From an uncultured archaeon (GTDB lineage Archaea > Thermoproteota > EX4484-205 > JAAOZP01), in the NCBI GenBank assembly GCA_938045545.1, contig CALIBN010000016.1, forward strand, positions 27,914 through 91,913: a stretch of DNA of 64,000 bases, written 5' to 3'. Made by a program: the position numbers and the translations under genes. Positions 1-44,062 of the stretch are shown one piece after another; the first letter of the stretch is position 1; every line of letters starts with the position of its first letter. Below the pieces are notes generated by a model that saw nothing but the letters and a program-made list of their open reading frames with translations, made no database searches and was not told the origin of the DNA.

Positions 1-1740
1 AGCCTTTTCCATGGGCCTAGGAATCGGGTGAACACGCCTAATGGCGTGCTATTCCCGCCTTCACCTGGTTCTCGCCTTTACGGCACTCCCCAGGCTTAAA
101 CGGTTAAACAGGGCAGCAACCCTGCTCACCCTATCCCAAGCCGTCGGCTCCTAGGCCTAGCGTCGCCGCACGTACCCGTCTGGTGCCGGAATATTAACCG
201 GCTTCCCCTTATCGGCCTACTCGTGTTAAGAGCAGGCCTTAGGACCGACTAACCCCCGGCTGACGACGCATTGCCGGGGAACCCTGGCCCTTACGGCGGT
301 TGGGATTCTCACCCAACTTTGCTGTTACTACCACCGGGATCTACACTTCGACTCGGTCCACTGGGCCTCACGGCCCAGCTTCTCCCCAAGCCGAACGCCC
401 TCCTACCAGACACGCCGCCACGCGGCGTGCTCCAGGGTATCGGTAGCCAGCTTAAGCCCCGTCCATTTTCGGGGCCTTGCCTCTCGACCGGTAAGCTGTT
501 ACGCACTTTTTAAGTGATGGCTGCTTCTAAGCCTACACCCCGGTTGTCTAAGAGGCAAGACGCCCTTTGGTTTGACACTTAGCTGGCATTTGGGGACCTT
601 AACCCTGGTCTGGGTTGCTCCCCTCTCGGTCCACGAGCTTAACCCGCGGAACCCCACTCCGCCCTTCTCAGGAGCACGCTGGTTCGGAGTTTGAAAGAGA
701 GGCGGGCCCTTTCGAGCCCTTACCACTCAATCAGTGCTCTACCCACCGTGCCTCCTCTAGGCGGGCTGAGCTGCGACTCACTTCGGAGGGAACTAGCTAT
801 CACCGAGCTAGATTGGTTTTTGTCCCCTAGCCCCAGGTCAGAGGAACGAATTGCACGTCAGCACCCCTACGGGCCTCCACCAGGCTTTCGCCTGGCTTCG
901 CCCTGCCCAGGGCTAGATCGCTCGGTTTCTAGTCTTACCGTCATGACTAAGGGCGCTCAACACACCCCCCACCTCCAACCTTTAAAGGCTGTGCGTGGAG
1001 TCGGTTTCCCTACGCCTACGAGGCTTGAAGCCTCTTAAGCTCGCCATGACGGTAAACTCCCCGGCCCGTGTTTCAAGACGGAGCGCATGACCCTGGTACC
1101 CTTCATCGCGGAGAGCCGTCTCCAGCTCCCGCTTTTGAAGGGAGTAACCCTTTCAGGCCATGCACGTCTATAACTGCCTGGTTTCAGGCGCTTTTCACCC
1201 CCCTTCCGGGGCACTTTTCAGATTTCCGTCACCGTACTGGTGCGCTATCGGTCTCGACGAGTACTTAGCCTTGGAAGCAGCTGGCTCCCTGCTTCCCATA
1301 GCATATCCGAGCTATGGTACTCGGGCTGAGAAGCCATCCTCCTCCAGGCCTTCCCCTACGGGGCTGTCACCCTCTATGGCGGACCATTCCAGGTCCCTTC
1401 GGGTTGGCCCGGATTGGAGGGAACGCTTCCGCCTCAACACCACATTACAAGCGTGTCATCCACGCCTGTTTCGGTTTGGGCTGGTCCCCTTTCACTCGCC
1501 GTTACTCAGGGAGTCTCGTTTTGATTTCCCTTCCTCCGCCTACTCAGATGCTTCCTTTCGGCGGGTTCCCCCACCCTCCTTGCGGAGGGTGTTCCCCGAG
1601 CTTTAGCTCGGGGAAGGTTACCCATTCAGCGATCCCCGGATCAACGGATGCATGCTCCTACCCGGGGCGTATCGCCGCTTGCCACGGCCTTCATCGGCTG
1701 TCGAGCCGATCCATCCACCAGGCAGCGTCCATGTGCCACG
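1..1740 (-). rRNA. rrl: 23S rRNA, 5' portion (runs off window start)
   Basis: Reverse complement near 1740 reads GCCTGGTGGATGGATCGGCTCGACAGCCGATGAAGGCCGTGGCAAGC, typical of an archaeal 23S 5' end; conserved LSU segments throughout. 5' end approximate. Confidence 0.97.
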
Positions 1741-1891
1741 GCCCCAACTTCCCGTTGGAACAGTCTGTGACCTGCCTGTGACGCACTCACAGCCCAAAAT
1801 TATTGGGCTCATGCATTCGCCTAAGCGTTAAGCTTAGGGTCATTACAACGATGCTGTTGAACATGTTTTAAGGGTCCACCGTCCTAAACGT

Positions 1892-3389
<1,498 letters not shown>

Positions 3390-10022: not shown

Positions 10023-10114
10023 GCCTCGGTAACTCAGCCTGGTAGAGTGGCAGCCTTGTAAGCGGAAAAGGCTGAGAAAGCTGTTAGGCGAGGGTTCGAA
10101 TCCCTCCCGAGGCT
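10023..10114 (+). tRNA. tRNA-Thr(TGT), 18-nt intron at 37/38 (10061-10078)
   Basis: GCCTCGG/CCGAGGC with U73; canonical BHB. Confidence 0.93.
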
Positions 10115-10977
10115 TCCTTCAAAAATATGGATCATTAAGGTTGTTGTTGAGCCCAGCTGGACGTGTCTGCTTAAATCTTGGAAGTGTTGAGGAGCAGGTG
10201 TGGGTTTGATTGCGTAAGCTGCCCCTATTTTAAGAAACCTTGTATCGGCTGTGTGATTGAGACTCGCTTGGTGGATAAATGCGTCAGGGACACTTCCTAC
10301 ACTGGGATAACGCATCCCAAGGGCTCCTGCAGGCTTAGGCCGTATTGACCGATTGGAAGCAGGGATAGGCCTCCCACGATGCTGATTTCATCTCCTAGGA
10401 AGAAAGTAAATGACAAGGATAAGGATCCCTAGGTTTGTGCTTGAGATTGATATCACTGGTCAAAGGTCCTTGATACGGGGACATGGTTTCCAAGTATCGA
10501 CAGTTTTCCTGCCCCTATGGCAACTGTTTGCAAATGAATTTAGCGCACGCTGATGACGAGGAAAAGAGAACATATAGACATAGCCTGTCATTTGTGAAAG
10601 AAGCTACGAAAAAGGGAGCAAATTCCCATTCAGAAATTTAAGAATCAACAGAAGGTAAAGCCTCACTCGAAGGAGAGAAAACTCGCAATAACCTCGGCCA
10701 CCTCAGTATTCTGTGAGCTAGAATCAACGCTCTTTAATAAGGTAATTATGTGGGCAGGCAATTGCGACCTCCAATCTCTCTTGGACTACATTCACTTCCT
10801 TGCCAATGGATTAGTTGAACATAAGATTGCCACCCGCATAATAGGATACGATTTGGAAAACAACACTGAGAAATTAGCGATCGAAGATTTGTATACAGAG
10901 GAAAACAGAGTAAAAGAGGTTTTCCTATGGCTGGCTTAATGCGGATGCTTGACGCATTACGACGTTCAGCTTAAACG

Positions 10978-11070
10978 AGCCCCAGGTGGGCTTCGAACCC
11001 ACGCCCTCCTCCATTGACGCTTTTCCAGCATTACCAAGGAGGCGCTCTAACCAGGCTGAGCTACTGGGGC
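10978..11070 (-). tRNA. tRNA-Thr(GGT), 18-nt anticodon-loop intron (best fit 38/39)
   Basis: GCCCCAG/CTGGGGC; BHB TGGT-AA^T..GTCA-AT^G restores UUGGUAA loop. Confidence 0.9.
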
Positions 11071-23190: not shown

Positions 23191-23317
23191 GTCGGGGTAG
23201 CCAAACCTGGTTAAGGCGCGAGATGCGCGATGTACGCGAGCCTGCTAAGCTCGTGGCCCATGAGAGTTCCATGATGGAACCACGAGGGCCGTGCGGGTTC
23301 AAATCCCGCCCCCGACG
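23191..23317 (+). tRNA. tRNA-Ser(GCT) with two introns: 30/31 (23223-23240) and variable arm (23265-23286)
   Basis: GTCGGGG/CCCCGAC with G73; BHBs CGCG-AG^A..CGCG-AG^C and CATG-AG^A..CACG-AG^G (one mismatch); splicing leaves GGCCC-ATGA-GGGCC arm. Confidence 0.88.
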
Positions 23318-39877: not shown

Positions 39878-39964
39878 GACATGGAAAGATGCTTCTAGAC
39901 CTTCTTTTTAAGTATAGTTGGGAAAACCTTTAGACTTATATAGTTGTGATTTATTCCCGGGCTA

Positions 39965-43655: not shown

Positions 43656-43959
43656 CCTCCTGCGAGTATTTAACCTTTACTTTTAGTTGTAAAAGTCTTT
43701 TTACGTCTTATCATGCGCACAGATTATTCAGCCGCATGGCCAGTTCGAAACGGTCTTTCGAGGGATAGAACGATTATATGTCAAGGACTCATACGTTGCA
43801 AAGGCGGGGACTGGATAGTTGAATCGTGCGCCAGATAGCACCGGTGCACAAGGGAAATTTTAAATCTCGCGCGCTTGAGCACCCAAAAACACCTTTTCAG
43901 CAATTCCCTGACAATAAAAGTTATTAAATCCCTCGCAACAAGTTTTTACAAGCCCGGGA

Positions 43960-44062
43960 AGCCCGGTGGAGCCAAGGCGCCGATTGTAATGGCAAGCATG
44001 GGGGGCTTTGGTGCAATTGACGAAGAAACCCCTTGATGAGAGTTCGAATCTCTCCCGGGCTA
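43960..44062 (+). tRNA. tRNA-Gln(TTG) with two introns: 10/11 (43970-43984) and 37/38 (44012-44027)
   Basis: AGCCCGG/CCGGGCT (A1:U72); BHBs CGGT-GG^A..GCCG-AT^T and CTTT-GG^T..GAAG-AA^A; spliced length 72 nt. Confidence 0.88.

Follow-up and report, generated by a model that had tools for sequence, protein, structure and literature searches.

The window, by which we mean the whole stretch of 64,000 nucleotides that was analyzed, belongs to a Brockarchaeota-type archaeon and carries 23S and 16S rRNA genes on its minus strand (positions 1-3389). The locus described here is a tRNA-Gln(UUG) gene on the plus strand (43960-44062, 103 nt), which was delimited by reading the sequence, by the Rfam alignment and by comparison with orthologues, and which contains two introns. 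It begins with the 5' acceptor strand AGCCCGG (43960-43966, read from the sequence), followed by U8, G9 and G10, and at this point, between nt 10 and 11 of the tRNA, both the sequence and the comparison of relatives place a non-canonical intron of 15 nt (43970-43984). The anticodon TTG (44008-44010), identified in the sequence and in the Rfam alignment, is followed by a canonical 16-nt intron at position 37/38 (44012-44027), the boundary of which can be moved within a run of A. A variable loop of 4 nt lies between the anticodon arm with its canonical intron and the T arm, and the gene closes with the 3' acceptor strand CCGGGCT (44055-44061, likewise read from the sequence) and the discriminator A (44062); CCA is not encoded. 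U8, the 10-13:22-25 stem and G18 G19 can all be read in the spliced sequence, which folds into a cloverleaf once the true acceptor stem is enforced. The original prediction, made from this stretch of DNA, had correctly proposed the 15-nt intron at 10/11 but had omitted the canonical one.

The region directly upstream of the gene, on the same strand, contains a second version of its 5' acceptor strand. This leader copy, AGCCCGG (43951-43957), is the 7-nt core of the putative decoy discussed below and was identified in the sequence and in 15 genus orthologues. It is separated from the gene by the spacer GA (43958-43959), so that the leader AGCCCGGGA (43951-43959) consists of the 5' acceptor strand plus GA. 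The duplication had been predicted, and it is exact: positions 43951-43959 are the reverse complement of 44053-44061, giving a potential helix of 9 bp that reaches 2 bp into the T stem. The last two pairs are those of the spacer with T-stem nt 64-65 (44053-44054), and they make the leader helix 9 bp long in the genus. The segment comprising nt 64-65 and the 3' acceptor strand, nt 66-72 (44053-44061), has two alternative partners, the leader copy or the true 5' strand. Further upstream, where a TATA element had been suspected at about 43921, we read the TATA-like box TTATTAAA (43921-43928), a predicted promoter of the tRNA-Gln gene that is kept in the 15 genus orthologues and that ends 22 nt before the leader copy.

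Standard tools overlook this gene. ARAGORN, which called four genes in the window, did not call tRNA-Gln(UUG), and Rfam at its gathering threshold, with five tRNA matches in the window, missed it as well. Its Rfam score is 24.1 bits against a cut-off of 29, and the sub-threshold alignment has a wrong 5' end and reads intron bases as the acceptor strand. Two other places in the window also look like multi-intron tRNA genes mis-parsed by standard finders, namely a 127-nt tRNA match on the plus strand (23191-23317, 39.4 bits) without an ARAGORN call, and an ARAGORN tRNA with a 2-base anticodon on the minus strand (10977-11070).

The 10/11 intron has a BHB splice motif that extends into the acceptor stem. 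In the register that we assign, tRNA nt 5-8 (CGGT, 43964-43967), which are also part of the acceptor stem, form the 5' strand of the central helix, and intron nt 10-13 (GCCG, 43979-43982), located by comparison of relatives, form its 3' strand. This register follows because the mature sequence fixes both cut sites, which fall in the 3-nt bulges GG/A and AT/T (the slash marks the cut). We compared 41 distinct exon1+intron segments from relatives, and the claim that the BHB needs nt 5-8 was borne out, since 100% of the cells of the central helix are paired; apart from GC to GU (three sequences) and UG to UA (one sequence), the helix is unchanged. In the inner helix next to it, the first three pairs change on both sides in 6, 22 and 16 of the 41 sequences. 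The covariation score of the segments is 0.377 versus 0.142 in shuffles, a value that none of 500 shuffles reached, and controls with a sliding partner paired in at most 64.5% of cells, compared with 90.4% in the true register. An inner helix with at least three contiguous pairs is present in 31 of the 41 introns, the first bulge is GG/A in 30, and the second is A-N/T in all 41. This comparison shows the predicted pairing between nt 5-8 and the intron.

The motif has two 3-nt bulges and a 4-bp helix, and its exon-side outer helix is absent (a single pair is possible there); it is therefore a relaxed BHB. Judging from the conserved register, our firm conclusion is that splicing of the precursor would demand a fold in which nt 5-7 lie outside the acceptor stem. 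The host genome encodes two ORFs with an EndA domain (PF01974; 188 and 200 aa), which is compatible with a two-subunit endonuclease, the type that is credited with cutting relaxed motifs in the accessible text of PMC4033280. It also contains two full-length matches to archaeal RNase P RNA, at G000:C13:5044-5349 (219.7 bits) and G000:C16:26196-26488 (190.4 bits), the second located about 1.4 kb before the start of the window. These two matches could reflect a real duplication, a strain mixture or a binning artefact.

The leader copy is a singular feature in this genome. Within the window, AGCCCGGGA occurs three times against 0.64 expected, and two of these occurrences belong to the locus itself (leader and 3' end of the gene); the third lies on the minus strand at 39955-39963. 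Our survey of the tRNAs of the genome covered 41 of the 42 Rfam tRNA matches (one partial match was left out) together with the tRNA-Gln(UUG) locus, and among these tRNA-Gln(UUG) alone has its acceptor strand repeated immediately upstream. Five surveyed tRNAs have an apparent upstream copy that is in fact the true 5' end, the Rfam start falling inside an intron. A genome-wide scan for a copy, a spacer, a second copy and the complement behind a T loop returned five raw matches at four places, three of them non-tRNA, and the tRNA-Gln(UUG) locus was the sole tRNA. The tRNA-Gln(CUG) of the same genome has a D-loop intron and neither a 10/11 intron nor a leader copy, and many other multi-intron tRNAs of the host are also without a copy. 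A tRNA with anticodon CGT (G000:C47:17517-17605, minus strand) is preceded, at a distance of 23 nt and directly after a TATA-like box, by an exact copy of its 5' acceptor strand, and its paralogue in the window (10023-10114) has none. We do not retain this copy as a leader element; it adjoins the TATA-like box and is probably due to chance or untranscribed.

Among the 15 distinct genus orthologues, nt 2-7 of the copy are 100% identical and the 21 nt upstream are 55% identical. In other lineages, a set that was partly chosen by the copy itself, the upstream identity is 0.30. The spacer between copy and gene ranges from 1 to 12 nt across genes. Opposite U72 the copy has A or G at position 1 (U in a few genes), and opposite G69 it has C or U at position 4; these substitutions preserve pairing with the 3' strand. 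The 3' strand itself is invariant in all genes found, and its helix with the leader thus offers no covariation. Among 29 distinct combinations, only 14 allow the eighth leader nucleotide to pair with nt 65; we consequently rejected a leader helix reaching into the T stem as a general trait, the 9-bp form being a feature of the genus, and the conserved core of the leader copy is 7 nt. In one relative (G019), loss of the intron from the UUG gene is accompanied by a leader decayed to GCCCGAAA, and the CUG gene has kept both intron and copy.

The promoter is placed as though the copy were the start of the tRNA, regardless of the length of the spacer. With a crude rule for TATA-like 8-mers applied to 46 genes, the median gap from the TATA-like box is 24 nt to the copy (sd 4.7) and 33 nt to the mature end (sd 6.0), and in ordinary tRNA genes of the host genome the median distance from the box to the mature 5' end is 25 nt (n=32). 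Archaeal promoters have their TATA box centered near -26. From these distances we predict that transcription probably starts at or beside the first base of the copy. The sequencing runs listed for the locus are DNA of marine metagenomes, with small shares elsewhere, and no RNA run is among them.

When the DNA of 41 relatives was searched, 29 genomes yielded orthologues, which represent the genus throughout as well as further families of its order; every orthologue with the 10/11 intron has the leader copy. The leader pattern was matched in 23 of the 26 genomes of the class, the exceptions being G001 (70% complete), G002 (92%) and G017 (90%). We extended the comparison to a phylum sample of 401 genomes, in which the leader pattern with a spacer of 1-5 nt was found at 67 places in 59 genomes, versus 12 reversed-control matches. 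Of these places, 27 are inside the class, and the 40 outside it comprise 11 real tRNA-Gln genes and 29 chance matches in coding DNA without a tRNA 3' end, which were discarded.

The unbiased test of co-occurrence was a search seeded by the intron pattern, with the copy then looked for upstream. The intron pattern was found at 39 places in 30 of the 401 genomes (versus 3 reversed-control matches), two of them non-tRNA, and in 36 of the 37 real intron-bearing tRNA-Gln genes a copy that can pair with the 3' strand at 6-7 of its 7 positions lies 1-12 nt upstream. By comparison, a subsample of 111 genomes contained 137 tRNA-Gln 5' ends without a 10/11 intron, spread over 75 of the genomes, and only two of these 5' ends have a copy; all these counts include kin, are not independent and overstate the number of events. 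The original prediction had singled out relatives with the intron and without the duplication as the finding that would speak against it, and no such gene was found, the one remaining gene (L125, G057:C1) having a degenerate copy that could pair with the 3' strand only via a bulge. The leader of this gene could also form a 5-bp hairpin of its own (GCCGG...CCGGC) directly before the tRNA, and may represent either another solution or a decoy in decay.

The intron-bearing genes are distributed over about ten families, Bathyarchaeia and Nitrososphaerales among them, and include both the UUG and the CUG isoacceptors. A search of database contigs with the combined leader and intron pattern gave at least 120 stretches, mostly chance matches in G+C-rich bacteria. 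The named archaeal records with the arrangement are, among the matches listed, from Ca. Brockarchaeota, Bathyarchaeota/Bathyarchaeia, Nitrososphaera, Nitrosocosmicus and other Nitrososphaerales. As a variant of archaeal pre-tRNA processing the arrangement is new, and it occurs far beyond the window.

Seven genomes of the 401-genome sample, from three lineages, have a copy without the 10/11 intron. In two members of a sister family (L031, G018:C76, and L032, G020:C204), the copy accompanies an intron at about 15/16, whose central helix lies on D-stem nt 10-13. The sequence of this intron resembles that of the 10/11 intron of the genus, and it may have slid by 5 nt with the leader copy kept. The second of these genes also has an insert at the junction of T stem and acceptor stem that repeats CTCTC. 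Three genomes (G111, G146, G176) combine the leader copy with a D-loop intron. The last two (L036, G021:C59, and L055, G024:C190) have retained the leader copy GGCCCGGGA in front of a tRNA-Gln(UUG) that contains no intron, and their congener L035 (G022:C7) has the same leader and both introns, which looks like a recent loss of the introns in G021 and G024. Copies without the 10/11 intron fit relics or a wider role in opening the D arm, and not a strict decoy reading.

We folded the precursor with and without its leader. At 37 C, the leaderless RNA of this locus has a minimum-energy fold with a normal acceptor stem (-38.4 kcal/mol), and enforcing the central helix raises the energy to -31.1 kcal/mol. 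When the leader is included, all nine of its bases pair with the 3' end in the best fold (-44.6 kcal/mol); the conformer that combines the leader helix with the central helix has -43.5 kcal/mol, 1.1 kcal/mol above the minimum, compared with -38.7 kcal/mol for the conformer with the true acceptor stem. The leader and the true 5' strand could also form a hairpin with each other (CCCGGG is palindromic), but this hairpin is not dominant in the ensemble and was dismissed as a candidate.

The same folding was carried out on 46 distinct genes, taking for each gene the minimum pair probability of the central helix. The idea that the leader frees nt 5-8 is supported by these folds: the central helix reaches a median probability of 0.31 when the leader is present, compared with 0.000 for the leaderless RNA and again 0.000 when the leader copy is mutated by transversions. 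At 60 C the three medians are 0.22, 0.000 and 0.000. Adding the leader raises the probability in 38 of the 46 genes and lowers it in none, a rise that is partly expected by construction when a competing strand is added. Within the limits of such a model, the folding shows that the copy is strong enough and that the leaderless equilibrium excludes the BHB motif.

The models do not reverse by themselves once the intron is gone. After in silico removal of the intron the leader is still paired, with a median probability of 0.99 against 0.001 for the true acceptor stem, and in the fully spliced RNA of this locus the leader conformer has -33.5 kcal/mol versus -29.3 kcal/mol for the cloverleaf. As the leader stays paired in the model of the spliced RNA, the switch back needs forces beyond the model, and, if the folds are right, tertiary structure, modification or capture by RNase P must bring the true acceptor stem back.

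Taken with the comparison of relatives, the folds make it reasonably probable, in our judgment, that the spare 5' acceptor strand in the leader of pre-tRNA-Gln acts in cis as a decoy. The sequence of events would be the following. Transcription would start at, or a few nucleotides from, the copy, as the distance to the TATA-like box suggests, and in the precursor the copy would bind the 3' acceptor strand (nt 66-72). Because the copy occupies this strand, nt 5-8 would be free for pairing with the intron, and with the 3' part of the 10/11 intron they would build the 4-bp central helix of the relaxed BHB. The splicing endonuclease, presumably the product of the two EndA-family genes present, would cleave this motif. 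After ligation the D arm would form and the true 5' strand would displace the copy, probably aided by the tertiary structure of the tRNA and by capture by RNase P, whose RNA is present in the genome, and RNase P would then remove the leader. A by-product would be that 5' maturation is delayed until the intron has been removed. Acting as a decoy, the leader would thus resolve the conflict of two mutually exclusive helices. The BHB is transcribed before the 3' strand, and its co-transcriptional formation without help is possible.

This last point is also the starting point of a different explanation, in which the BHB forms co-transcriptionally anyway and the leader helix serves the order or quality control of processing, by keeping the unspliced precursor from RNase P, 3' trimming, CCA addition or aminoacylation, or by protecting its ends. 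We hold this to be unlikely, if the most plausible of the alternatives. Transcription of the BHB ahead of the 3' strand agrees with it, as do the dominance of the helix between leader and 3' strand in the predictions both before and after intron removal and the persistence of copies with D-arm introns that do not use acceptor nucleotides (G018/G020, G111/G146/G176). There is also a bacterial precedent, since pairing of the leader with the 3' RCCA end inhibits RNase P (accessible text of PMC9433436). What such a role leaves unexplained is the tight link to an intron that overlaps the acceptor stem (36/37 vs 2/137, kin included), and why the host tRNA-Gln(CUG), with its D-loop intron, and the many other multi-intron tRNAs of the host do without a copy. 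A neutral origin, with the copy a relic of a short tandem duplication that arose with or near the insertion of the intron and was then inherited, appears to us less probable still. One ancient origin could give co-occurrence among kin, and the copy outlives the intron in G021 and G024. Yet nt 2-7 of the copy are invariant and the flanks diverge (upstream identity 0.55 in the genus and 0.30 in other lineages, the latter partly selected by the copy), the distance from copy to TATA-like box is kept across spacers of 1-12 nt, the substitutions in the copy keep the pairing, and the copy decays after intron loss, as in the UUG gene of G019.

Two further readings concern the nature of the copy itself. 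The upstream copy might be the real first exon, with everything from the spacer through the second copy a further small intron; the mature sequence would be the same whichever 9-nt frame between the copies is removed, and the TATA-like box is spaced as for a tRNA starting at the copy. Such an intron has no fitting BHB register, as examined by hand, since its 4-bp helix would need direct repeats to pair with each other. Moreover, the copy may have A, G or T at position 1, the second copy is in every case AGCCCGG with T at position 8, and the spacers vary freely between 1 and 12 nt, which together make this reading very improbable. Least probable of all, we think, is that the copy acts as DNA, as an initiator-like promoter element. 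It does sit at the predicted transcription start, but it is absent from the other tRNA genes inspected in the host genome, its sequence tracks that of the acceptor strand, and its substitutions preserve pairing in the RNA.

The decoy reading, which we prefer, bears on how non-canonical tRNA introns are explained. The usual account invokes nothing beyond a tolerant endonuclease. In the gene described here, the splice motif has to compete with the most stable helix of a tRNA, its acceptor stem, and a conserved element outside the mature tRNA appears to settle the conflict. If true, this would be a new kind of functional pre-tRNA leader, with a built-in order of processing steps. We are evenly divided on whether spare acceptor strands in pre-tRNA leaders form a general, undescribed class of archaeal cis-RNA elements that license introns borrowing acceptor nucleotides and put splicing before 5' maturation. 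If such a class is general, it may be what lets introns settle at the junction of acceptor stem and D arm, and tRNA-Gln 10/11 would be its most widespread and oldest known instance (Brockarchaeia, Bathyarchaeia and soil ammonia oxidizers). The arrangement in relatives of Nitrososphaera and Nitrosocosmicus makes the proposal testable with existing cultures and recombinant enzymes. It would also provide, if the decoy reading is true, a practical rule for gene finders based on the leader copy, which can be mistaken for exon 1.

A literature search of the main texts and abstracts of openly accessible journals found no description of a leader copy standing in for an acceptor strand; the 10/11 position may appear in the intron tables of tRNAscan-SE 2.0. 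Non-canonical and multiple tRNA introns are well known in Thermoproteales and Thaumarchaeota (PMC4090602; PMC4033280; PMC8450103). To judge from the accessible text of these papers, the intron described here resembles them in lying outside 37/38, in its relaxed BHB with two 3-nt bulges and a 4-bp helix, and in the presence of several introns per gene, and the host has two EndA-family genes. The difference is in the location of the motif, which the same text describes within the tRNA body only, with no mention of a leader that frees the acceptor strand. There, the word "leader" refers only to split or permuted tRNAs, in which leader and trailer form the BHB, and it is absent from the accessible text of a 2026 preprint on Asgard tRNA introns.

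Among systems in which the leader itself is active, the closest in bacteria is the pairing of pre-tRNA leaders with the 3' RCCA end, which slows RNase P (PMC9433436). The two cases share a 5' leader that binds the tRNA 3' end, by prediction in tRNA-Gln, and that influences the presentation of the acceptor end. In the bacterial case, as far as the accessible text goes, the pairing extends the acceptor stem and the 5' strand is not replaced, and there is neither an intron nor a link to splicing. Split and permuted tRNAs (Nanoarchaeum equitans, Caldivirga, Cyanidioschyzon; PMC4090602; PMC4033280) share with the proposed model of the tRNA-Gln precursor that a sequence outside the tRNA pairs and so enables splicing; in the accessible descriptions of these tRNAs, leader and trailer form a BHB and the endonuclease cuts both off. 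The tRNA-Gln leader differs in that it forms no BHB and is predicted to pair with the 3' strand of the mature tRNA, and its removal would fall to RNase P. Neither the sequence nor the folds gave a BHB register at the boundary of leader and exon of tRNA-Gln(UUG), where the leader instead pairs with mature nt 64/66-72. In its logic, the proposed switch also resembles attenuators and the expression platforms of riboswitches, which are built from mutually exclusive helices where one strand has two alternative partners and the choice between them sets the next step. The 3' acceptor strand of tRNA-Gln likewise has two alternative partners, but the switch involves no ligand and no ribosome, and its trigger would be the removal of the intron itself.
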